From NCBI GenBank assembly GCA_030018415.1, contig JASEGC010000001.1:129971-193970 (forward strand): a stretch of 64,000 nt of DNA. The letters run 5' to 3'. How positions within the stretch are numbered: the stretch's first letter is position 1; each line of letters begins with the position of its first letter. The position numbers and the translations under genes are program-made. Source of the DNA: Candidatus Aenigmatarchaeota archaeon. Its GTDB lineage: Archaea > Aenigmatarchaeota > Aenigmatarchaeia > CG10238-14. Shown in pieces: positions 3,620 through 50,122 of the stretch. The notes below the pieces were generated by a model that worked only from the letters and a program-made list of their open reading frames with translations, did no database searches and was not told where the DNA came from.

Positions 3620-5626
3620 TTAAATCTTCTGTAAGAAGCCTGGTCTGGGGGCGAACACCATTCCTTCGTTCTTCATCCTTCTCAAGATATCATCAACATC
3701 ATCCACACCTTCTTCCCTCGCTCTTCTTGTTATTTCTTCTTCTGGTATGACTTTACCTATGATATTCGTCAACTCATCTATCACATCCAAAACAATCCTT
3801 ATTTTGCTCCTTTGAGCACTGGTTATTGCACCTTCAGCTCTATCTATATCTATCATTCCAGTCTCGGGTTCGAAACCAAATTGTCTCAAGCTTGTTTTCA
3901 TCAGTCTTATGGCTCTCTCTGCATCCTTGACAGTGACTTTATCGCTCAACCTAATTTTCGCTGATGCTTCTGCTATCCTTATCAACGCTTCATACTGTCT
4001 GAGTGTGATGGATACAGGTGCTTCCTCTCCAGCCTTCGCTCTCATCTTCAGGTAAAAATCTTTGATGATTTCTCCCGCCTCTTTGGTTAAAACTGGATGA
4101 ACATGACTCTTCGCGTATGCGACATATTTCCTGAGTAGTTCTGGTTCGATAACAGGCTTAGCCTCATCTTCGAAATGTCTCATCCTCAAGATATGATCTG
4201 CCAGTTTAGTATCCAATTCTGGGTTGGGTACATCTCTCAGAGCGAACCTTAGGTCAAACCTGCTAAGGAGGACTTCGTCTATGTCAACCTGTTCCCTTAT
4301 TGGAATGTAAGGATCAAACCTCCCGAGTTTTGGGTTACCTCCGGCAAGAACGGCTGTTTGCGCTGGTAAAGTTGCGACGATGGATGCTTTTGCTATGGAT
4401 ATGGTTTCCATGGACATCGCCTCCTGTAGTGCGACTTGATCCTGCGGTGATACCTTTGAGAACTCGTCGATCGCACAAAGACTTCTATTGCTCATGACTA
4501 GTGCTCCTGCCTCCAAAACCCATCCCCCCAGAAATTGTTCATCCCTGACCACAGTGGCTGTCATTCCTGGGCCAGTTACGCCTGTCCCACTAACATACTT
4601 ACCTCTTGGTATAAGTTTAGAAGTTAATTGCATCAATTGCGATTTCCCACTAGCCGGGTCACCAACTAATAAGATATGTATGTTTCCTCTTATCCTTGTC
4701 CCATCTTTCAAAAGTTTAGGTTCTCCACCAAAGAGTTGAAGAATTATCGCCAATTTCACATCATCCATACCGTACATACTTGGAGCGAGTGAAGCGACTA
4801 ATTTATCGTAGATATCTGGATCTTTAGCTAGCTTCTGTATCTTCTTCTCGTCTTCTGGGTCTATGACCAATTCCTCCCATTCCACTTCCACTGCTTCTAC
4901 GTTATTAGCATCTAAAAGTATATCCATCTGTCTTGTTTTTTTACCTGCCACTGTTCTTTTAGGAACTTCCTTCAGTATACCAACAACTTTTATTCTGTTT
5001 CCAGGCTCAGTTTTATTTCGCATCTTGAGTGAAGTCAAATCTTCCTTCAAATAAATCATTATCTCAGAAGGCCTCTCACCAGTCGTTATTTCAAAAGGTT
5101 CTTCTATCGCAATCCATCTGGCATCGTACAGCTTTTGATCTACTTGTCTAAATCCTCTTCTACAACCGCAATCGCATCTTGTTGGCAACTTAATCGTTTT
5201 TTCTTTTTCTGTCTGCACCACAGTTATTCTTTTGTTACAGTCTGGACATTCAAAGACAATTTCAGCTACTTCGGGCCTAATTTCAGATGCTCTCTTAACG
5301 ATTCCGTCAACGCACAACAATTTACCAATGTGTTCTGCCCTGATATTTCTTATCCTGATCTTATTGCTGTCAGGAATGTTAAAAAATCTTACGTGAAGTC
5401 TTCCTTTTTGAGGCAAATCTATTTGTTCAACGGATTGTTCTAAGAGTTCTATAGTTTCTTCAGCTTTTTCTAATATCAAATCTGCTAACTCAGGATCGAA
5501 TCTATCGACTAAGGAAAAATCAACCTCGAGAGATTTCTTACCTTCCATCACAGCCAAAGCCAAGTCTTTGTAGTAATAATCTCTCAAGAATTCTGAAAAC
5601 TTCTCTATGATCTCATCTTTCTTCAT
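3620..5626 (-). CDS. mcm: MCM replicative helicase (no intein)
   Basis: 668 aa. Zinc motif CPDCNK...CDCGC, Walker A GDPASGKSQL, Walker B CAIDEFSK and arginine finger SRFDL are all present. Confidence 0.95.
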   Translation of the reverse strand: MKKDEIIEKFSEFLRDYYYKDLALAVMEGKKSLEVDFSLVDRFDPELADLILEKAEETIELLEQSVEQIDLPQKGRLHVRFFNIPDSNKIRIRNIRAEHIGKLLCVDGIVKRASEIRPEVAEIVFECPDCNKRITVVQTEKEKTIKLPTRCDCGCRRGFRQVDQKLYDARWIAIEEPFEITTGERPSEIMIYLKEDLTSLKMRNKTEPGNRIKVVGILKEVPKRTVAGKKTRQMDILLDANNVEAVEVEWEELVIDPEDEKKIQKLAKDPDIYDKLVASLAPSMYGMDDVKLAIILQLFGGEPKLLKDGTRIRGNIHILLVGDPASGKSQLMQLTSKLIPRGKYVSGTGVTGPGMTATVVRDEQFLGGWVLEAGALVMSNRSLCAIDEFSKVSPQDQVALQEAMSMETISIAKASIVATLPAQTAVLAGGNPKLGRFDPYIPIREQVDIDEVLLSRFDLRFALRDVPNPELDTKLADHILRMRHFEDEAKPVIEPELLRKYVAYAKSHVHPVLTKEAGEIIKDFYLKMRAKAGEEAPVSITLRQYEALIRIAEASAKIRLSDKVTVKDAERAIRLMKTSLRQFGFEPETGMIDIDRAEGAITSAQRSKIRIVLDVIDELTNIIGKVIPEEEITRRAREEGVDDVDDILRRMKNEGMVFAPRPGFLQKI

Positions 5627-6188
5627 AAATCTTATTTTTTAAGGCATTGATATTTTTTAATTTTTCGTATATAGTGCTGACAGCATATTCGATATCCTCA
5701 ACTTTTCTGACACCGGTACAAACAATCTTACCCGAACTGAACAGTAAGAATGCAACCTTAGGGGTTTTCGTCCTGTAGACCAAGCCTGGGAATTGTTCTG
5801 GCTCGTATTCAGAATTCTCTAACTCGAAAGCGATTTTATCCAAGTTTAATCTATTAGGGAGTTGAGCAGAAGCAACTATGTTTTCAACCTGTATTGAATA
5901 TTTCTTGGGGTTTCCAAGCTTTGCTGATCTTATCATTCTCACGACTTTTCTGACTACTTTTCTTACTTCCTCGATGCTTCTAGCCCCAGTACAAACAATC
6001 TTTCCGGATGAGAAGATTAATACAGCTGCCCTAGGGTCTTTCAAACGATAGACCAAGCCTGGGAATTGTTCTGGCTCGTATTCAGTACCTTCCAAATGCT
6101 CAACAATCTTTTCTAGCGGTATTCTGATCATTAAAGATGCAGAAGCTACGATGTTTTCGATTTTTATGTTGAATTTTTTCATCATCAC
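5613..6188 (-). CDS. tbp: TATA-box binding protein
   Basis: Two direct repeats carry IENIVASA...PEQFPGLVYR...LLFSSGKIVCTG. Confidence 0.95.
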   Translation of the reverse strand: MMMKKFNIKIENIVASASLMIRIPLEKIVEHLEGTEYEPEQFPGLVYRLKDPRAAVLIFSSGKIVCTGARSIEEVRKVVRKVVRMIRSAKLGNPKKYSIQVENIVASAQLPNRLNLDKIAFELENSEYEPEQFPGLVYRTKTPKVAFLLFSSGKIVCTGVRKVEDIEYAVSTIYEKLKNINALKNKIYEER

Positions 6189-6243
6189 CCTCCAAGTGAA
6201 ATTCTATTCTATATTTTTTTCGCAAGTATTTATAAAAAACTAC

Positions 6244-6738
6244 TTAAATGTATTCACTCAAAGTGAGTAAAAATTGATTGAGTTTCCAGACAGGCACTAT
6301 GATGGTATCCTCGTGTTTTAAAAGGTCTTCCTCAAACAAAGTAACGATAAGCGGGATAAATTTTGTTTTCTCAGTAATTTTTAATTTACTTTTTGCTATA
6401 GGATTATCTTTGAGGAAATTTTTCAATTCTTCTAATCTGTATTTTTGCCCTTCAACTGCATACTTCAATCCAGTCTTCTTGTATCTTCCTCTACTCCACT
6501 GTTTACAGTCAATCACAAAAACATAATTCTTGTCAAAAGCTAGAATATCAACTTCAAACCTTCTATCAGTCTTGAACCTAAAATTATGGAATGTTAAGAA
6601 GTCATGTTTTTTGAAAATTTCTGCTACGAGTTCTTCAAATTGTTTCCATCCTATCTCTTCAACTATATTTTCAATTTCTTCGCCTGATAAGATTCTATTT
6701 TTAATCTCTTCTATATCAACCATAAATTTAATAAGCAA
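6244..6738 (-). CDS. PD-(D/E)xK restriction-endonuclease-fold protein
   Basis: EVDILAFDKNYVFVIDCKQW matches the D...(D/E)xK nuclease core. Exact family is uncertain. Confidence 0.4.
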   Translation of the reverse strand: MLIKFMVDIEEIKNRILSGEEIENIVEEIGWKQFEELVAEIFKKHDFLTFHNFRFKTDRRFEVDILAFDKNYVFVIDCKQWSRGRYKKTGLKYAVEGQKYRLEELKNFLKDNPIAKSKLKITEKTKFIPLIVTLFEEDLLKHEDTIIVPVWKLNQFLLTLSEYI

Positions 6739-6763
6739 TTAAAAGAGTAAATATAGGATTTGT

Positions 6764-7813
6764 ATGAAAATCAAAGATCAATACATCAAAGAAGCATTGC
6801 TCTATGGAAAATTGAAGAACAAAAAAGTTAGATGTAACACTTGCAACAGACGTTGCATTATTCTCCCAGGTAAATTAGGCTTCTGTAAGACGAGAGAAAA
6901 TAAGGATGGTAAATTATACACATTAGAATATGGTTTGATATCATCGATAAATGTTAACCCAATAGAAAAAAAACCATTATTCCATTTTTGGCCCGGTAGT
7001 GATTGTTTGACGATTGGAAGTTGGTCTTGTACTTTTACATGTCCTTGGTGCCAGAATTATGATATAAGCAAAGTTGAACCAAACATAGAAAACTCGACTA
7101 TCTTAACACCAGAGGAGCTTGTAAACTTAACTGTTAAAGAGAAATGTCAAGGTGTTTCTGCAAGCTTTTCCGAACCTACAACTTTCCTTGAATATTCACT
7201 CGATGTTTTTAAATTAGCAAAGAAAAGGAACCTATATACAAACTTCATTACGAATGGGTACTTTACTCCAGAAGCATTGAAATTGTTGTTGAAATCAGGT
7301 TGCGATGCTTTCAACATTGACATAAAAGGTGATAAAGAAGCTGTAAGAAAATACTGTGGTGCGGATGTAGAGTTTGTTTGGCAGAACACGATAGAAGCAA
7401 GAAAGAAAGGTGCATGGGTTGAACTAACTACTCTTATAATTCTTGGCATCAATGACGATGAAGAATGTTTGAGAGGAATAGCGAAAAGAATTCATGATGA
7501 GGTTGGTGATAGCACACCTTGGCACGTTTCAAGATATTATCCCTGTTATAAGTTTACTGTCTCTCCAACTCCTGTCGAAGCCTTAGAGAAAGCATTCAAG
7601 ATTGGAAAGGAAGAAGGTTTAAAATTCATCTACGTTGGTAATGTGCCTGGTCATAAAGAAAACACTTATTGTCCTAGTTGTGGAAAAGTTTTAATAGAAA
7701 GGTTTGGTTTTAATGTTTTAAGTTTTAATCTAACTAAAGAAAATAAGTGCCCAGAGTGCGGAGAAAAAATCCCGATTGTTGGAAAATTTATTAAACGTGA
7801 AAGAATTTGGTAG
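6764..7813 (+). CDS. AmmeMemoRadiSam-type radical SAM enzyme (PFL-activase-like)
   Basis: N-terminal CNTCNRRC cluster, radical SAM CTFTCPWCQN motif and a C-terminal CPSC...CPEC ribbon. Confidence 0.7.
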   Translation: MKIKDQYIKEALLYGKLKNKKVRCNTCNRRCIILPGKLGFCKTRENKDGKLYTLEYGLISSINVNPIEKKPLFHFWPGSDCLTIGSWSCTFTCPWCQNYDISKVEPNIENSTILTPEELVNLTVKEKCQGVSASFSEPTTFLEYSLDVFKLAKKRNLYTNFITNGYFTPEALKLLLKSGCDAFNIDIKGDKEAVRKYCGADVEFVWQNTIEARKKGAWVELTTLIILGINDDEECLRGIAKRIHDEVGDSTPWHVSRYYPCYKFTVSPTPVEALEKAFKIGKEEGLKFIYVGNVPGHKENTYCPSCGKVLIERFGFNVLSFNLTKENKCPECGEKIPIVGKFIKRERIW

Positions 7814-7857
7814 TTTTGAAAAATACGTTACTCAATTAAAGATGAGGTGGGAAATAT

Positions 7858-8596
7858 TTGAAAATTTTAGGCATCGATGAAGCTGGCAGTGAACATAAGT
7901 CTTAAAATCATAGGCTTATGCTCGCCAAAAGGAGCAATCATCGGTCCACTAGTCATCTGCGGATTAATGACAGACGAAAAGAATGAAAAAAAGTTAAAGG
8001 AAATTGGAGTTAAAGATTCCAAACAACTAACCCCAAAAAGAAGGGAAGGACTTGTAAAGGAAATAGAGAAAATCGCTACTCATATCGTCGTTCTTCGCAT
8101 TCCCGCTTGCAAAATCGATGCCAACAGGAAAAGGGGAATAAACCTTAATCAGATTGAAGCTTTGAAGATGGCGGAGATAATAAACTTACTTGAACCAGAT
8201 AAAGCCATAGTGGATGCACCAAGCTTCAACACGAGTAAATTCAGGGATTACCTTCTGTCAAAAATAGAAAACAAAAATTTTAAGTTAATATGCGAGAATT
8301 ATGCAGATGAAAATTATCCTGTGGTGAGTGCTGCTTCCATCATAGCCAAGGTCAACCGTGATGAAAATATTGAAGAATTGAAGAGGAAAGTTGGTTTTAA
8401 TTTTGGTGTCGGTTATAGTCATGATCCCCTCACCATAGAATTCTTGAATAAGCTAACAAAAGAAAACAGAGGGAAATTGCCTACATACGTAAGAAATACA
8501 TGGGATACCGTCAAGAGAATAAAGAAGGAATACAGCCAGCCGAGAATTTTAAGTTTCTTTAAACAAATGTTCAAGAAGAAAAAAACTACTTCTTAA
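7858..8596 (+). CDS. rnhB: Ribonuclease HII, interrupted by a 40-nt insert (exon 1 7858-7889, exon 2 7930-8596 under the intron model)
   Basis: A TTG start sits 8 nt after GAGGTG. Exon 1 reads MKILGIDEAG, and exon 2 reads GAIIGPLVICG...DSKQL...DAPS...ASIIAK. The catalytic GIDEAG lies in a different frame from the rest. Confidence 0.75.
7890..7929 (+). other. Putative BHB-like (relaxed HBh') mRNA intron in rnhB
   Basis: 4-bp helix 7884-7887/7924-7927; 3-nt bulge AGT 7888-7890; 11-bp stem 7891-7901/7913-7923 with an 11-nt loop; opposite bulge AAA 7928-7930. Removal restores GIDEAGRGAIIGPLV. Confidence 0.55.
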
Positions 8597-23420: not shown

Positions 23421-23672
23421 ATGGAAAAAGAACAGATCGTAGTCTTGCTCTACACGATACTTGGATGTATAGTTGGTTACTTTTCCGTCTATGTAACAAA
23501 CTCTCTTTTACTCTTCGGTTTAGTCCTGGGCATATACTTCATCACCGTTATTCCTCTATCGAAGAAGATAACTGTAAATAAGCTCATGAAATGGCTTTTA
23601 TCTAACACTTTTTTAGTTTACATCCTCGTATGGTTAATGGTTTATATTTTACTGAGTAACACAATCGTGTGA
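23421..23672 (+). CDS. Small 3-TM membrane protein
   Basis: 83 aa, hydrophobic. Its stop overlaps the start region of smc. Confidence 0.35.
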   Translation: MEKEQIVVLLYTILGCIVGYFSVYVTNSLLLFGLVLGIYFITVIPLSKKITVNKLMKWLLSNTFLVYILVWLMVYILLSNTIV

Positions 23673-23677
23673 ATTAC

Positions 23678-26600
23678 ATGAAAACCAGGATCAATAAACT
23701 GAGCCTTCAAGGGTTTAAGTCATTCAGAAGAAGAGTATCTGTACCATTTTTCCCTGGTTTTAACGTTTTTTGTGGACCGAATGGGGTCGGAAAATGCCTT
23801 TTGGGGTCGATTTTAGTTCCTCTTCCAAACGGAGAATCTAAATCTATTAGAGAACTCGTTGAAAATGCATTATCTAAATCTAAGAACGTTAATAAGATCG
23901 ATGATGGGTTTTACACGTACGAGAACCCAGACAACATAAAAATACTGACATTAGACAGTTCATTCAAGTTAAGACCGAAAAAAGTTAAGGCATTTGTTAA
24001 AAGAAGCGCCCCTAATAAACTTTTGAAAATCTTAACGAGGTCTGGAAGGGAGATTATAGTCACACCATATCATCCTCTATTCTCGATTAACGATGGTAAG
24101 ATTAAATCGTTAAAAGCGGAGGAATTACAAAAAGATGTAAAAGTAGCAACTCCAAGAAAGCTACCTGTTTATGGACAAAGAAATAAGATAGACTTGATAA
24201 ACCTTTTCTCAAAAGAAGATGATGTTTACGTTCCATTTTCCTTAGAACTTAAAAAAGAAGTGGAGAAACTCTTGAATGAGTTTCCTTCATACAAAGACTT
24301 TTGTAAATCTGTTGGGATATCCTACCATACTATTAAAGGACTTTTAGATGGACAGTCTATAAAATACTATTCATTAGCAAAAATATTGCAAGCAAACGGT
24401 TATTCGAGAGAAAAGATTGAAGGTTTTCTGAAGAACATAAAACACAAAAAAACGAACAAAACAATAAGAATACCCGTTGAACTGAACGAGGATCTAGCAA
24501 GGTTTCTGGGATACTTAATTTCAGAAGGTTTATCGAGTATAAACAACCAACTTAGGTTTACTAACGAAGATCAATCCTTGATAAACGATATCTGTAATCT
24601 TTCTAATTCTTTGTTCCAAACTAAAACTCATGTTTATTCGTATAAAGGTTCTACTAAAGACTTGATAATATACTCAAAACCAGGTCAGATTTTCTTAGAA
24701 AGAGTTTTTGGAATCAAAGTTGGTAGTGATTGCAGGAGCAAAAACATTCCATCCATTATTTTTAAGTCAGACAAAAATATTATAGCACATTTCCTTGCTG
24801 GTCTTTTTGATGGAGATGGGTATTTACACCTTAGCTTTCATAAAAACAAGACACGATGTTACTTTAGGTATTCTACTGCGAACAGTAGGTTAGCAAAAGA
24901 TGTTTTTGATTTACTGCTAAGATTGAATCTACAACCCATAATAAGAAAAAAAGATAAGTATGCATCTAATACAAAAAAAAGGAAAAAAAAGGAATATTAT
25001 TCAATTTTTGTTTTTGGGGTGAAACAAACTAAAAAATTATGTGAGTTGATCCCTTTTAAGAGTTTAAATAAAAGAAGAATCAAAGAAGAGATTAAGACGA
25101 TCAATGTCAAGTATAACCCCAACCTTGATTTAATTCCTGGCATCAACAAATTAATCAAAAAAATCGTTAGAGAAGCAAGAGTTAGCGTCAAAGCTAATAA
25201 AAGATTGTGTCCAAAACTACAAGCATACTATGAAAATAAGTGTGAATGTAGTAGGAATGGTTTACTAGAAGTTCTAAGTTTCATCGAAGAAAAAGGTAAG
25301 ATAACAGAAAAAACTAGAAAGAAAATAGAGTATTTGAGAAATCTTGCTAAATCTGATATATACTGGGACGAGATAGTAGAAATTGAAGAGATTAAGCCAA
25401 AAAAAGAATGGGTATACGACCTTTGTGTTGATGAAACCCACAATTTTGTTGCTGAAGACTTAATAGTTCATAATAGTAACATATTAGATGCTATAAGCTT
25501 CGTTCTAGGCAGTGCATCAACAAAGGCTTTACGTGCTGGCAGACTGCATGAGTTGATATACCATGGCAACGGTGATATCCCTCCCTCAGATTACGCCTCC
25601 GTCACACTTTGGCTGGAGAATTCTGATAAATTATTCCCGTTCGAGGTTCCTGAAGTTGCGATAAAGAGGATAATAAACAAGAAAGGAATGAGCATCTTCA
25701 AGATTAACGGCAGGACAACGACGAGAGAAAAAGTGATAGAATTACTCTCATCTGCTCAAATTTATCCTGATGGTTATAATATCATCATGCAGGGCGACGT
25801 ATCACAAGTCATAGAGATGAATCCTCAGGAGAGAAGGGGTGTAATCGATGAAGTATCAGGCATAGCTTACTACAACGAGAAGAAAGAGAAAGCGCAGAAG
25901 AATCTTGAAAAAGTCGGAGAAAAATTGAAAGAAGTTGAGATCATCCTTACGGAAAGGCTGGAAAGATTGCAAGAACTGGAAACTGATAGGAATACTGCCT
26001 TAAGGTACAACGAATTACGAGAAAAATTGCAAACACTCGAGGCTTCCTTGGCGTACAAGAGATTCCAGATAGAACAAGAGAAGTACTCCAAGGTTGAGGA
26101 AGAAATAAAGGAATGTGAAGCTGACATTCTAAGAGTAGAAGATAATATCAGGAACATAGACAAAACGATAGAAATGAAAGAAAAGAGAAAAAAGGAGATA
26201 ACAGAGATAATCCTGATAAGGTCGAAGGAAGCCAGGATAAGGGAAGAAATTGAAGAGGTTAAGAACAAGATTCTGAGAAATGAGGATAAGATAGAATCTA
26301 TCCAGAGAGAGATTGAAAGGATAGATAAGACTATAGAAAGGCTGAGAACACTACAAGAAAGAAAACCTGTTCTGTTTAAAAGAGGAGTGAAAGCGATTTT
26401 AGACCTTAAAATTGCTGATGTTTTCGGGACAATCTCAGAATTGATAAAAGTCCCAAAAGAGTACCAGGCTGCGATAGAAGTGGCTGGTGGTTCCAGGCTT
26501 CAAAACTTAATCGTGAAAGATACTAAGACCGCGACTGATTGTATCGAATATTTGAAGAGAGAAAAAATAGGGAGAGCTACATTCTTGCCGTTGAACAGAA

Positions 26601-27856
26601 TAAAACCAAGAAAACTTAATCCAGAGCAAAAATCGCTATTGAAAAAACCTGGTGTCGTTGGGTTGATAACAAACATCATCAATTTCGATCGAAAGTATTC
26701 TCCCGCCATCGAATATGTTTTTGGGGATACTATAATAGTCGAAAACCTTGGCGTTGCCAGACAACTTGGAATCGGAAAAGTTAGGATGGTCACGTTGGAT
26801 GGTGACCTAGTAGAGAGATCAGGGGCGATGATCGGTGGTTACTACAAGAAGGAAGAGGTAACTGGCGGGTTTGATTTCGGAATAGAAGAATACGAGAACA
26901 ATAAGAAAGAACTTGAAGAAGAGATAAATTTCCTCAGGATTGAGATTGGACAATTGAATCGAAAGTTAGACGAGTTGAGAGCTAGCAAAGAATCAGAGTC
27001 AAAAGAAGTTCTAGACCTAGAGAGCGAGAAAATAAAGATAGATGAAGAGTTGGCAAAAATTGCACTGATAAGAAAAGAACTGTACGAAAAAAGACTTGAA
27101 TTACAGACTCAAGTGAACAGGCTGAAGATAAGCAACGCAAAAAAAGAGGCCGAGTTGAATAATCTAAAACTTGAAATGGAAAAGTACAAGGTAATCGAAT
27201 ACATCGATGGAAAGCCAGCCGTTCTTGAACTGCAGATTCAACAAACCATATCAACACTTAACTCATTAGGCCTAGTCAACATGAAAGCCATAGAAGAATA
27301 CGATGCGTTTAAGGGAGAATTCGAGGAGTTAAAGCACAAGTATGATCAAATCAAGAAAGAAAGAGATGCTATTGTGGATATGATTGAGAAGGTAGAAGGA
27401 AAAAGGAAAGAAGTGTTCTACGAATGTTTGAGAGTTATAGACAAGAATTTCAGAGAAATTTTCAGAGAGATTGCTGACGGGGAAGCTTCACTCGAGTTGG
27501 AAAATCCCCTGGATATAGAGAGTGGTTTGCTGATACAAGCCAACCCAGCAGGAAAGAGTTTATTGAACATAGATGCTATGTCTGGGGGGGAAAAAGCTTT
27601 GACTGCTCTGGCTTTCTTGTTCGCGATACAGAAGTACAAACCTGCTCCCTTCTACGTTCTCGACGAAGTTGATGCGTACTTGGATAAGGTCAACACTAAA
27701 AGAGTTGTGGAGATGATAAAAAAACTTTCTGAGAAAGAACAGTTCATAATCATAACGCACAATGATTACACGATTAAGCAAGGAGATCGTGTCTATGGTA
27801 TAAGTATGGAAAACGGAGAATCGAAGATACTTGGCTTGGAATTACCAGAGATGTAG
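23678..27856 (+). CDS. smc: SMC chromosome segregation ATPase containing an intein in the Walker A loop
   Basis: N-terminal LSLQGFKSF...FCGPNGVGK, long coiled coils, a hinge (GTISELIKV...), signature MSGGEKALTALAF and Walker B FYVLDEVDAYLD. Confidence 0.9.
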   Translation: MKTRINKLSLQGFKSFRRRVSVPFFPGFNVFCGPNGVGKCLLGSILVPLPNGESKSIRELVENALSKSKNVNKIDDGFYTYENPDNIKILTLDSSFKLRPKKVKAFVKRSAPNKLLKILTRSGREIIVTPYHPLFSINDGKIKSLKAEELQKDVKVATPRKLPVYGQRNKIDLINLFSKEDDVYVPFSLELKKEVEKLLNEFPSYKDFCKSVGISYHTIKGLLDGQSIKYYSLAKILQANGYSREKIEGFLKNIKHKKTNKTIRIPVELNEDLARFLGYLISEGLSSINNQLRFTNEDQSLINDICNLSNSLFQTKTHVYSYKGSTKDLIIYSKPGQIFLERVFGIKVGSDCRSKNIPSIIFKSDKNIIAHFLAGLFDGDGYLHLSFHKNKTRCYFRYSTANSRLAKDVFDLLLRLNLQPIIRKKDKYASNTKKRKKKEYYSIFVFGVKQTKKLCELIPFKSLNKRRIKEEIKTINVKYNPNLDLIPGINKLIKKIVREARVSVKANKRLCPKLQAYYENKCECSRNGLLEVLSFIEEKGKITEKTRKKIEYLRNLAKSDIYWDEIVEIEEIKPKKEWVYDLCVDETHNFVAEDLIVHNSNILDAISFVLGSASTKALRAGRLHELIYHGNGDIPPSDYASVTLWLENSDKLFPFEVPEVAIKRIINKKGMSIFKINGRTTTREKVIELLSSAQIYPDGYNIIMQGDVSQVIEMNPQERRGVIDEVSGIAYYNEKKEKAQKNLEKVGEKLKEVEIILTERLERLQELETDRNTALRYNELREKLQTLEASLAYKRFQIEQEKYSKVEEEIKECEADILRVEDNIRNIDKTIEMKEKRKKEITEIILIRSKEARIREEIEEVKNKILRNEDKIESIQREIERIDKTIERLRTLQERKPVLFKRGVKAILDLKIADVFGTISELIKVPKEYQAAIEVAGGSRLQNLIVKDTKTATDCIEYLKREKIGRATFLPLNRIKPRKLNPEQKSLLKKPGVVGLITNIINFDRKYSPAIEYVFGDTIIVENLGVARQLGIGKVRMVTLDGDLVERSGAMIGGYYKKEEVTGGFDFGIEEYENNKKELEEEINFLRIEIGQLNRKLDELRASKESESKEVLDLESEKIKIDEELAKIALIRKELYEKRLELQTQVNRLKISNAKKEAELNNLKLEMEKYKVIEYIDGKPAVLELQIQQTISTLNSLGLVNMKAIEEYDAFKGEFEELKHKYDQIKKERDAIVDMIEKVEGKRKEVFYECLRVIDKNFREIFREIADGEASLELENPLDIESGLLIQANPAGKSLLNIDAMSGGEKALTALAFLFAIQKYKPAPFYVLDEVDAYLDKVNTKRVVEMIKKLSEKEQFIIITHNDYTIKQGDRVYGISMENGESKILGLELPEM
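23795..25474 (+). mobile_element. Intein (560 aa) with LAGLIDADG homing endonuclease domain, inserted GPNGVGK/C...VHN/SNILDA
   Basis: Cys1 is at 23795. The intein ends in His-Asn at 25469-25474, with Ser as the +1 residue. LAGLIDADG motifs are LARFLGYLISEGL and HFLAGLFDGDGYL. Removal rebuilds GPNGVGKSN. Confidence 0.85.
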
Positions 27857-49844: not shown

Positions 49845-50122
49845 TGCAAGGGACCATACGGTCGGAGGGCTACAGGTCCTCTGTGATCGCAAAACCTGTT
49901 ATGGCGAGACCGCAGTCTGAGGGCGATTCAGTTTTGTGGTCAGGCCCAGATCTTGGACTAAGAAACCATGTCTCCCAGGGTCAAATGTACGTCGAACGGG
50001 CCAGGTTCGGAAGAAAGCAACCATAAGGCGTATATTTGATGCTTGCGAGTTCCCATGGTGGAGAAAGAGATTTGGATTAACCTGATCATGAAGCTGTCTC
50101 CACTGAAGACGTGTCCCTTGCA
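49845..50122 (+). ncRNA. ffs: Signal recognition particle RNA (7S)
   Basis: Only GC-rich island in the window. A 10-bp terminal helix pairs 49845-49854 with 50113-50122. CCAGGTTCGGAAGAAAGCAACCATAAGGC matches the helix 8 GGAA tetraloop and AGCA loop consensus. Confidence 0.8.

Follow-up and report, generated by a model that had tools for sequence, protein, structure and literature searches.

We analysed rnhB, the gene for ribonuclease HII (RNase HII), in a 64,000-nt stretch of a Candidatus Aenigmarchaeota genome (the window; G+C content, 36%), together with a 40-nt insert near its start that is a candidate bulge-helix-bulge (BHB) pre-mRNA intron. The RNase HII open reading frame (ORF) of the window is identical to a deposited protein named "MAG: ribonuclease HII [Candidatus Aenigmarchaeota archaeon]" (MAG, metagenome-assembled genome). 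This ORF lies in the +1 frame relative to a second frame opening at TTG 7858; its first 18 residues are translated from out-of-frame exon 1 and the intron, and the catalytic D-E is absent from it. It becomes RNase HII-like from GGA 7931 (GAIIGPLV), a point that the initial annotation had placed at about 7930. The frame from TTG 7858 reads (M)KILGIDEAGSEHKS and then stops at TAA 7903-7905. The same annotation had described a GAGGTG 8 nt upstream of this TTG, the N-terminus MKILGIDEAG and a stop at 7903, and these coordinates are exact. The GAGGTG and the TTG start are also kept in the intron-bearing relatives L086, L089, and L091. The features of the window are listed in Table 1.

Table 1. Positions of the features in the window.
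Feature	Position	Strand	Description
Shine-Dalgarno-like GAGGTG	7844-7849	+	8 nt 5' of the true start TTG 7858
rnhB exon 1, 32 nt	7858-7889	+	TTG start; (M)KILGIDEAG and AG of the split Arg codon; catalytic Asp-Glu
Distal exon-exon helix, 5' strand AUCGAUGA	7873-7880	+	codons I-D-E; 8 bp with 7938-7945
Unspliced ORF as deposited	7877-8596	+	239 aa; P0001; "ribonuclease HII"
Proximal outer-helix (h) remnant GC	7882-7883	+	pairs with GC 7934-7935; constrained fold, probability 0.97
Central helix H, exon strand UGGC	7884-7887	+	4 bp with GCCA 7924-7927
5' bulge AGU	7888-7890	+	exactly 3 nt between H and h'; predicted 5' splice site 7889/7890
rnhB intron, 40 nt, frame-shifting	7890-7929	+	predicted excision by splicing endonuclease; homologous position in 21 distinct class C introns
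Intron hairpin h'	7891-7923	+	stem 7891-7902 with 7912-7923; loop 7903-7911; -9.3 kcal/mol
Central helix H, intron strand GCCA	7924-7927	+	pairs with UGGC 7884-7887
3' bulge AAA	7928-7930	+	predicted 3' splice site 7929/7930; energy model extends the unpaired stretch to 7933
rnhB exon 2	7930-8596	+	A of the Arg codon, GAIIGPLV..., stop TAA 8594-8596
Distal exon-exon helix, 3' strand UCAUCGGU	7938-7945	+	codons I-I-G; pairs with 7873-7880
psmA exon 1	13805-13847		ATG 13805 after AAGGTGA; encodes MPDMLPEYMGYDRT
psmA central helix H, GCAC with GUGC	13842-45 with 13872-75		bulges AAA and AUU; hairpin 13849-13871
psmA intron, 30 nt	13848-13877		in-frame, with TAA
Archaeal signal recognition particle (SRP) RNA	49847-50120	+	Rfam RF01857, 119.2 bits; no other Rfam family reaches the gathering score in the window

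Reading frames of the interrupted rnhB gene

Removal of the 40 nt at 7890-7929 fuses the two frames into GIDEAGRGAIIGPLV, so that exon 1 and exon 2 together encode an RNase HII of 232 aa with a full Pfam RNase_HII match. The fusion by an exact 40-nt deletion had been proposed in the initial annotation, and we compared nine such deletions (starts 7884-7892). The conserved Arg of GIDEAGRG was obtained from 7890-7929 alone, and the other eight gave K, S, or P at conserved residues. The score against Pfam RNase_HII (PF01351) rose from 140.3 bits (profile 8-199) for the unspliced ORF to 161.7 bits (profile 1-199 of 199) for the spliced protein, and a complete profile match with an N-terminal GIDEAGRG was found only after removing 7890-7929. 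In an alignment of 31 homologues (A1), D7, E8, G10, R11, and G12 are invariant, as are D106 and D137, and the insert therefore parts the first catalytic acidic residues from the remaining enzyme. The differences in exon 1 among relatives are synonymous or conservative.

It could be argued that the RNA is left unspliced and that translation starts at ATG 7877, giving a catalytically dead RNase HII-like protein with the hairpin as a regulatory or structural element. The ORF 7877-8596 does exist and is predicted by gene callers. However, ATG 7877 has no Shine-Dalgarno (SD) motif, whereas TTG 7858 has one, and the protein would lack the invariant D7 and E8. Moreover, the alternative N-terminus is not conserved: relatives begin with MPKG..., LPRG..., or MDWTKLAV..., or have no start, and the window has MKLAVNISL.... 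What is conserved instead is exon 1 with its SD motif and start. We consider the unspliced reading very unlikely.

An assembly or sequencing artefact, which the initial annotation had named as a possible objection and which the origin of the window from a MAG might favour, is extremely improbable. A contig from a second assembly (Logan contig SRR23186779_20396, run SRR23186779) is 100% identical to window 7277-9196, intron included, and equivalent inserts occur in dozens of independent assemblies from other samples.

RNA structure and related introns

The region 7870-7945 folds with a minimum free energy (MFE) of -24.7 kcal/mol (z = -3.95), and none of 200 dinucleotide shuffles folds as well. 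The pairings first noted in the sequence, namely the 4-bp helix UGGC/GCCA (the central helix H), the AGU bulge, and the AAA after the helix, are all present as described. The intron hairpin h' had been drawn as an 11-bp stem around an 11-nt loop. The stem stands, with a single A.C mismatch at 7893/7921 and a single G.U pair at 7900/7914, and RNAfold adds the pair U7902-A7912, which reduces the loop to 9 nt. This loop holds the in-frame stop UAA 7903-7905.

The outer exon-exon helix had been called weak, with C7883-G7931 as its one pair. This is correct for the position adjacent to the bulge; however, the pairs G7882-C7935 and C7883-G7934 and an 8-bp distal helix form with pair probabilities of 0.96-0.98, and for the exon-exon pairing as a whole the description as weak is inaccurate. 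The proximal GC/GC pairs stack on the central helix in the BHB conformer (constrained fold), and enforcing H and both bulges costs 1.2 kcal/mol (-27.1 vs an MFE of -28.3). For the 3' AAA 7928-7930 to be a 3-nt bulge, C7883-G7931 must form. As modelled by folding, the rnhB motif is a BHB of the relaxed, HBh'-like type whose outer helix is displaced.

Related introns were collected from the DNA of homologue clusters, from one genome per species scanned, and from one DNA-pattern scan of metagenomes. Close RNase HII homologues mostly begin with an intact ...GIDEAGRG, and the N-terminus is aberrant or truncated in about one-tenth of the best 120 clusters. We obtained 39 intron-bearing RNase HII loci, which comprise 30 distinct introns of 20-41 nt; all 24 matches of the metagenome scan were RNase HII N-termini, with no chance matches. 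The 30 introns use three registers, which are no more than 8 nt from the same catalytic motif. In class A (3 distinct introns: L008, L013, and L018), the intron separates GAC GAA from GCA GGC and H is GACG/CGUC. In class B (6 distinct introns: L010, L049, L086, L089, L090, and L091), it separates GGN A from G AGG and H is CAGG/CCUG, CGGG/CCCG, CUGG/CCAG, or GCGG/CCGU. In class C (21 distinct introns), to which the window belongs, it separates GGY AG from A GG and H is UGGY/GCCA.

The BHB register has four of four H pairs and gives an in-frame G-x-[DE][DE]-x-G-R-G in 30 of 30 introns, with H and the bulges fixed by the search pattern for loci L092-L115 (H in 17 of the 21 class C sequences). It is the sole coding-compatible register with four of four pairs in 29 of them, and L098 has a second; the assignment demanded the invariant G-R-G, and a G.U-rich alternative (GIDEAARG) for some class C introns was set aside. 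Protein searches led to thirteen of the 30 introns, which were therefore not selected for pairing. In every intron, the stretch from bulge 1 to H folds as a single hairpin. The pair that closes this hairpin lies directly against the bulge and H in 27 introns, and two nucleotides are unpaired at each end in L106, L109, and L114.

Covariation was computed on a structure-anchored alignment of the 21 class C introns. All six base-proximal pairs of h' show double changes, and 92.9% of the cells in h' are paired. The whole structure is 86.8% paired, compared with 26-53% when the partners are slid by 1-3 columns, and the covariation score of 0.429 (0.19 in shuffled alignments) was reached by none of 500 shuffles. 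The distal exon-exon helix is paired in 75.6% of the cells. The class B H, which belongs to the protein-found set, also covaries: a synonymous change from GCA to GCG is matched by U to C in the intron (L086 vs L089). Pairing between the I-D-E and V/I-I-G codons gives an exon-exon duplex with a median of -13.0 kcal/mol in class B and C carriers and -6.5 in intronless genes (Mann-Whitney p = 6.7e-6; p = 1.2e-4 against 21 close intronless relatives of equal G+C), where the p-values are inflated by phylogenetic non-independence and the effect is large.

The exon-1 frame terminates within the intron in 29 of the 30 introns. Every one of the 16 in-frame introns carries a stop in the exon-1 frame, compared with 5 of 16 in each other frame; shuffled introns contain a stop with a frequency of 0.61 each, which gives a joint probability of 2.5e-4 for the 16. 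This looks like selection against the translation of unspliced RNA.

Translational recoding, in which ribosomes hop over the 40 nt or frameshift on an RNA that stays uncut, would also accommodate a hairpin and a stop codon just past the Gly codon, and the short insert (20-41 nt) superficially resembles the gap in phage T4 gene 60. Bypass in gene 60 needs matched take-off and landing codons and no exon-intron helix. However, matched codons are absent here, as GGC 7885-7887 has no GGC right before the A GGA at 7930, and the intron-exon helix H covaries. Furthermore, the three registers split the Arg codon or the E/A boundary exactly where the 4-bp helix and the 3-nt bulges set it, a placement that bypass does not predict, and the in-frame introns of 24-39 nt would require the same hop. 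Recoding is therefore given a very low probability.

The exon-2 ORFs are intact, with 207-226 codons, in all complete carriers except L104. The initial annotation had named decayed downstream ORFs in close relatives as a sign of a pseudogene, and apart from L104 none were found. L104 (Ga0071330_1070703, class C) has a stop 24 codons into exon 2 that its near-identical relatives L105 and L107 lack; a pseudogene, an error in sequencing, or an additional interruption may account for this. For the window, inactivation of a now decaying rnhB by a 40-bp insertion would agree with this premature stop in L104 and with the deposited 239-aa protein, which is devoid of the catalytic D-E. Against it, exon 2 keeps a full-length ORF with RNase_HII scores of 140-162 bits, the SD-plus-TTG starts are conserved in relatives, and 30 distinct inserts occur in diverse lineages with intact exons, synonymous exon-1 variation, and covarying stems; a second rnhB copy is not needed to explain the retention of the gene. 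A pseudogene is accordingly judged highly improbable. Taken together, the geometry of the relatives, the compensatory changes, and the intact ORFs in practice exclude a pseudogene, an artefact, and chance.

Distribution, a second candidate intron in psmA, and other features

The distribution of the introns was read on a rough neighbour-joining tree of the spliced proteins, on which they are scattered among intronless sequences. The window (class C, 40 nt) groups with the class B carriers L086 (83% identical protein), L089, L090, and L091 and with the intronless L087, and the class A carriers have intronless genes as their sisters. Class C is also found on the branches nearest to Woese/Nanoarchaeota-like, Micrarchaeota-like, and Asgard sequences. 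The Asgard-related class C carriers are L119, L120, L106, and L114. The protein of L114 is 73-78% identical to Promethearchaeota/Lokiarchaeota RNase HII, and 9 of 120 clusters of Asgard-type RNase HII start with MQKG or MLKG. L119 is a locus of a Promethearchaeota MAG (GCA_048940925.1, JBHLOC010000001.1) with, at about 1470-1500 of the locus, a 30-nt class C intron that contains an in-frame TAA and whose H, UGGC/GUUA, includes two G.U pairs.

The class and presence of the intron vary between proteins that are about 80% identical, which suggests that this site of the RNase HII gene is a hot spot with rapid gain, loss, or sliding. Behind this pattern may lie an ancient intron that was lost many times, a hot spot at which introns were gained repeatedly, or sliding by 1 nt that turns class B into class C or the reverse. 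The gene neighbourhood is common to relatives with or without the intron (window 3620-9620; L001, L003, L087, and L089) and runs MCM, TBP, NERD/Mrr nuclease, radical-SAM, rnhB, and a convergent FEN1 (XPG_N/XPG_I), with L15e beyond. The radical-SAM gene upstream of rnhB in L086 holds an intein.

A second candidate intron lies in psmA, the proteasome alpha gene, which was singled out both by a structural scan and by an SD-plus-start analysis of the window; the latter picked the same two genes, rnhB and psmA. Scanning the whole window for generic BHB motifs (H of 4 bp, bulges of 3 nt, and at least 5 contiguous h' pairs) was uninformative, with 2086 matches vs about 1800 for shuffled sequence; the A.C mismatch in h' kept the rnhB intron from being detected. 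Looser scans with coding filters returned hundreds of matches, among which the homology was convincing only for rnhB and psmA.

In psmA, the unconstrained MFE structure itself includes H, the 3-nt bulge, and h'. Splicing of ACA A to UA GCA gives YDRTIAVFSPDGRLFQVEYA, and the predicted spliced junction is ...GGCTATGACCGCACAA joined to TAGCAGTATTCAGCC. Pfam Proteasome_A_N matches the spliced PsmA at 50.2 bits over positions 1-23 of 23, and this signature is missing from the called ORF 13904-14545. A relative with 77% identity (L116) carries a 31-nt psmA intron at the same site. Its H is GUAC/GUAC, which compensates for a synonymous change from CGC to CGT, and its stem differs in sequence yet pairs. 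Most PsmA homologues are intronless. The rnhB and psmA introns are 6 kb apart, and both are placed in invariant N-terminal motifs near the start and contain in-frame stops.

With regard to the remaining features of the window, ARAGORN and Rfam found no tRNA genes in the 64 kb. Such genes may be absent from the window or disrupted by non-canonical introns that were missed by ARAGORN and Rfam. The SMC ORF (1395 aa, window 23669-27856) appears to hold an intein with a LAGLIDADG homing endonuclease, and the SMC product of the identical Logan locus L117 matches Pfam Intein_splicing and LAGLIDADG_3.

Proposed splicing and comparison with known systems

On this evidence, the rnhB gene of the Aenigmarchaeota genome is very probably split by a real, unannotated 40-nt BHB pre-mRNA intron at 7890-7929 that is spliced out. 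In the pre-mRNA, the last nucleotides of exon 1 (UGGC 7884-7887) would pair with the last nucleotides of the intron (GCCA 7924-7927), and the intron body would form a hairpin directly beside the 3-nt bulge AGU. The exons would be held by GC/GC (7882-7883 with 7934-7935) and by the 8-bp helix of 7873-7880 with 7938-7945. The tRNA-splicing endonuclease EndA is then predicted to recognise the helix-bulge geometry and to cut after the second nucleotide of each bulge, at 7889/7890 and 7929/7930, in keeping with what is established for archaeal splicing (PMC6379350, PMC2738675, PMC7714728). The position between the second and third bulge nucleotides had been given in the initial annotation; the rule is documented for cbf5 (PMC2738675), and it yields the invariant Arg codon.

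An RtcB-type ligase would join ...GGC AG to A GGA..., and the junction would encode G-R-G; the 40-mer would probably be circularised. The mature mRNA would encode the 232-aa RNase HII beginning MKILGIDEAGRGAIIGPLV. The predicted spliced junction is GCTGGCAG joined to AGGAGCAATC, also given as ATCGATGAAGCTGGCAG joined to AGGAGCAATCATCGG, and that of the circular intron is ...TTATGCTCGCCAAA joined to TGAACATAAGTC.... Peptides of the spliced product would span GIDEAGRGAIIGP, with ILGIDEAGRGAIIGPLVICGLMTDEK as the expected peptide. Unspliced RNA would yield only a 15-residue peptide that ends at UAA 7903, and an active enzyme is therefore expected solely from spliced RNA. The relaxed form of the motif leads us to expect a broad-specificity endonuclease. 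EndA is known to cut relaxed HBh' and BHL motifs (PMC6379350), and the EndA architectures of DPANN archaea are diverse, with extra-loop enzymes linked to relaxed tRNA introns (PMC5829648).

Several points weigh against this reading. The pair probability of the central helix H is only 0.13-0.26, and H is absent from the unconstrained MFE structure. The single possible pair beside the 3' bulge, C7883-G7931, has a probability of 0.01. The 3' site lies in a 6-nt bulge (7928-7933) in the constrained fold, and the strict hBHBh' motif is not matched; of the BHB layout proposed in the initial annotation, the 4-bp H, the 5' 3-nt bulge, and h' are retained, with 30 introns of the same geometry in relatives, and the 3' site is the part that departs from it. 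For loci L092-L115, the H helix and bulges were set by the pattern, which leaves only h' and the exon helices of these loci as independent evidence. A motif search of the 64-kb window and of the fetched loci (674 kb) found no EndA, and RtcB was found neither in the window nor in the fetched intron-carrier loci, the sole RtcB being that of an intronless organism. Finally, we infer the splicing of the rnhB transcript from the DNA sequence.

Some of these points would also fit a real intron that is removed by an agent other than EndA and RtcB, such as a self-cleaving activity or a different structure-specific RNase: the strict BHB is not followed at the 3' site, no EndA turned up in the searched window and fetched loci, and DPANN archaea vary in their EndA architectures (PMC5829648). 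However, an intron of 20-41 nt could not accommodate a group I or II ribozyme, and the invariant features are those that EndA measures, namely the 4-bp helix, the 3-nt bulge, and the cut after the second bulge nucleotide. EndA also accepts relaxed HBh'/BHL motifs (PMC6379350). Removal by another agent is thus very improbable, and we retain excision by EndA and ligation by an RtcB-type enzyme as the preferred mechanism.

It is a plausible idea that invariant codons offer a stable exon half of the motif, which would explain the N-terminal sites near the start, and, equally plausibly, failed splicing would then give a null rather than a harmful product. A role as a negative regulator has been proposed for the cbf5 intron (PMC2738675).

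In the literature searched, to 2025, the coding-sequence BHB introns of Archaea are those of crenarchaeal cbf5 only, in addition to the 5'-untranslated region (UTR) case of HVO_1309. No mRNA introns of rnhB, psmA, Aenigmarchaeota, or DPANN were found in that literature, the coverage of which is incomplete, so that an earlier description is possible. rnhB and psmA would be the second and third host genes and would show that protein-gene introns processed by the tRNA-splicing machinery are far more widespread than has been assumed, with a host range covering Aenigmarchaeota-like, Woese/Nanoarchaeota-like, and Micrarchaeota-like lineages and a Promethearchaeota MAG. Gene callers would systematically mis-annotate such genes, giving RNase HII without catalytic residues and proteasome alpha without its N-terminal signature. 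The at least 30 natural variants in three registers form a data set on the rules for relaxed endonuclease substrates and on intron gain, loss, and sliding, and the introns in Asgard relatives bear on RNA processing in the archaeal ancestors of eukaryotes. Tentatively, short BHB introns might be recurrent and evolutionarily dynamic in housekeeping protein genes of DPANN and Asgard archaea. If so, introns would still be gained, for example by reversed endonuclease and ligase reactions or by intron transposition with recombination, and the synthesis of replication, repair, and proteolysis enzymes may be gated by the RNA-splicing machinery.

A BHB intron in the pre-mRNA of crenarchaeal cbf5 was reportedly described by Watanabe in 2002 and by Yoshinari in 2006. 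The cbf5 introns are 16-44 bp long and ORF-less, have an unconventional BHB, and are cut between the second and third bulge nucleotides (Yokobori 2009, PMC2738675). The RNase HII introns (20-41 nt) are likewise short and ORF-less, lie in a protein gene, split a catalytic residue or motif, and share the relaxed BHB and the cut position, and their patchy presence among relatives similarly implies gain and loss. In contrast, they lie in rnhB (with psmA nearby) of Aenigmarchaeota, other DPANN-like archaea, and a Promethearchaeota MAG; the rnhB intron is 32 nt from the start codon, occurs in three registers within 8 nt, and has a distal exon-exon helix. The two show no sequence homology, and the splicing of rnhB is a prediction from sequence. 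A family definition by the cbf5 gene, the catalytic Asp codon, and Crenarchaeota does not cover the rnhB intron, and hence the mechanism is the same and the intron family is not.

Non-canonical archaeal tRNA introns with relaxed motifs were reportedly described by Marck and Grosjean in 2003. The relaxed HBh'/BHL tRNA introns (PMC6379350) resemble the rnhB intron in the 4-bp exon-intron helix, in one well-formed 3-nt bulge beside the hairpin with the other site in a looser loop, and in their similar size range. They differ in that the host of the rnhB intron is an mRNA, without a tRNA body to aid recognition, and in that its exon half is constrained by codons. The BHB intron in the 5' UTR of Haloferax volcanii HVO_1309 likewise resides in an mRNA, and its processing by the splicing endonuclease was shown both in vivo and in vitro (Schwarz 2020, PMC7714728); this likeness in substrate is set against an uninterrupted coding sequence and a euryarchaeal host.

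In HAC1/XBP1 splicing, IRE1 cuts mRNA stem-loops and a tRNA ligase or RtcB rejoins the ends, which changes the reading frame. This process, which is listed as spliceosome-independent splicing (PMC13149111), shares an endonuclease cut and tRNA-type ligation with the proposed rnhB splicing. It relies on IRE1 and another motif and is stress-regulated, and nothing points to a shared origin. The gap of phage T4 gene 60 is similarly short and untranslated, with a hairpin and a stop, and neither of its bypass conditions fits rnhB. In sequence terms, the rnhB element qualifies as a BHB intron and would work like one, without homology to the cbf5 intron.

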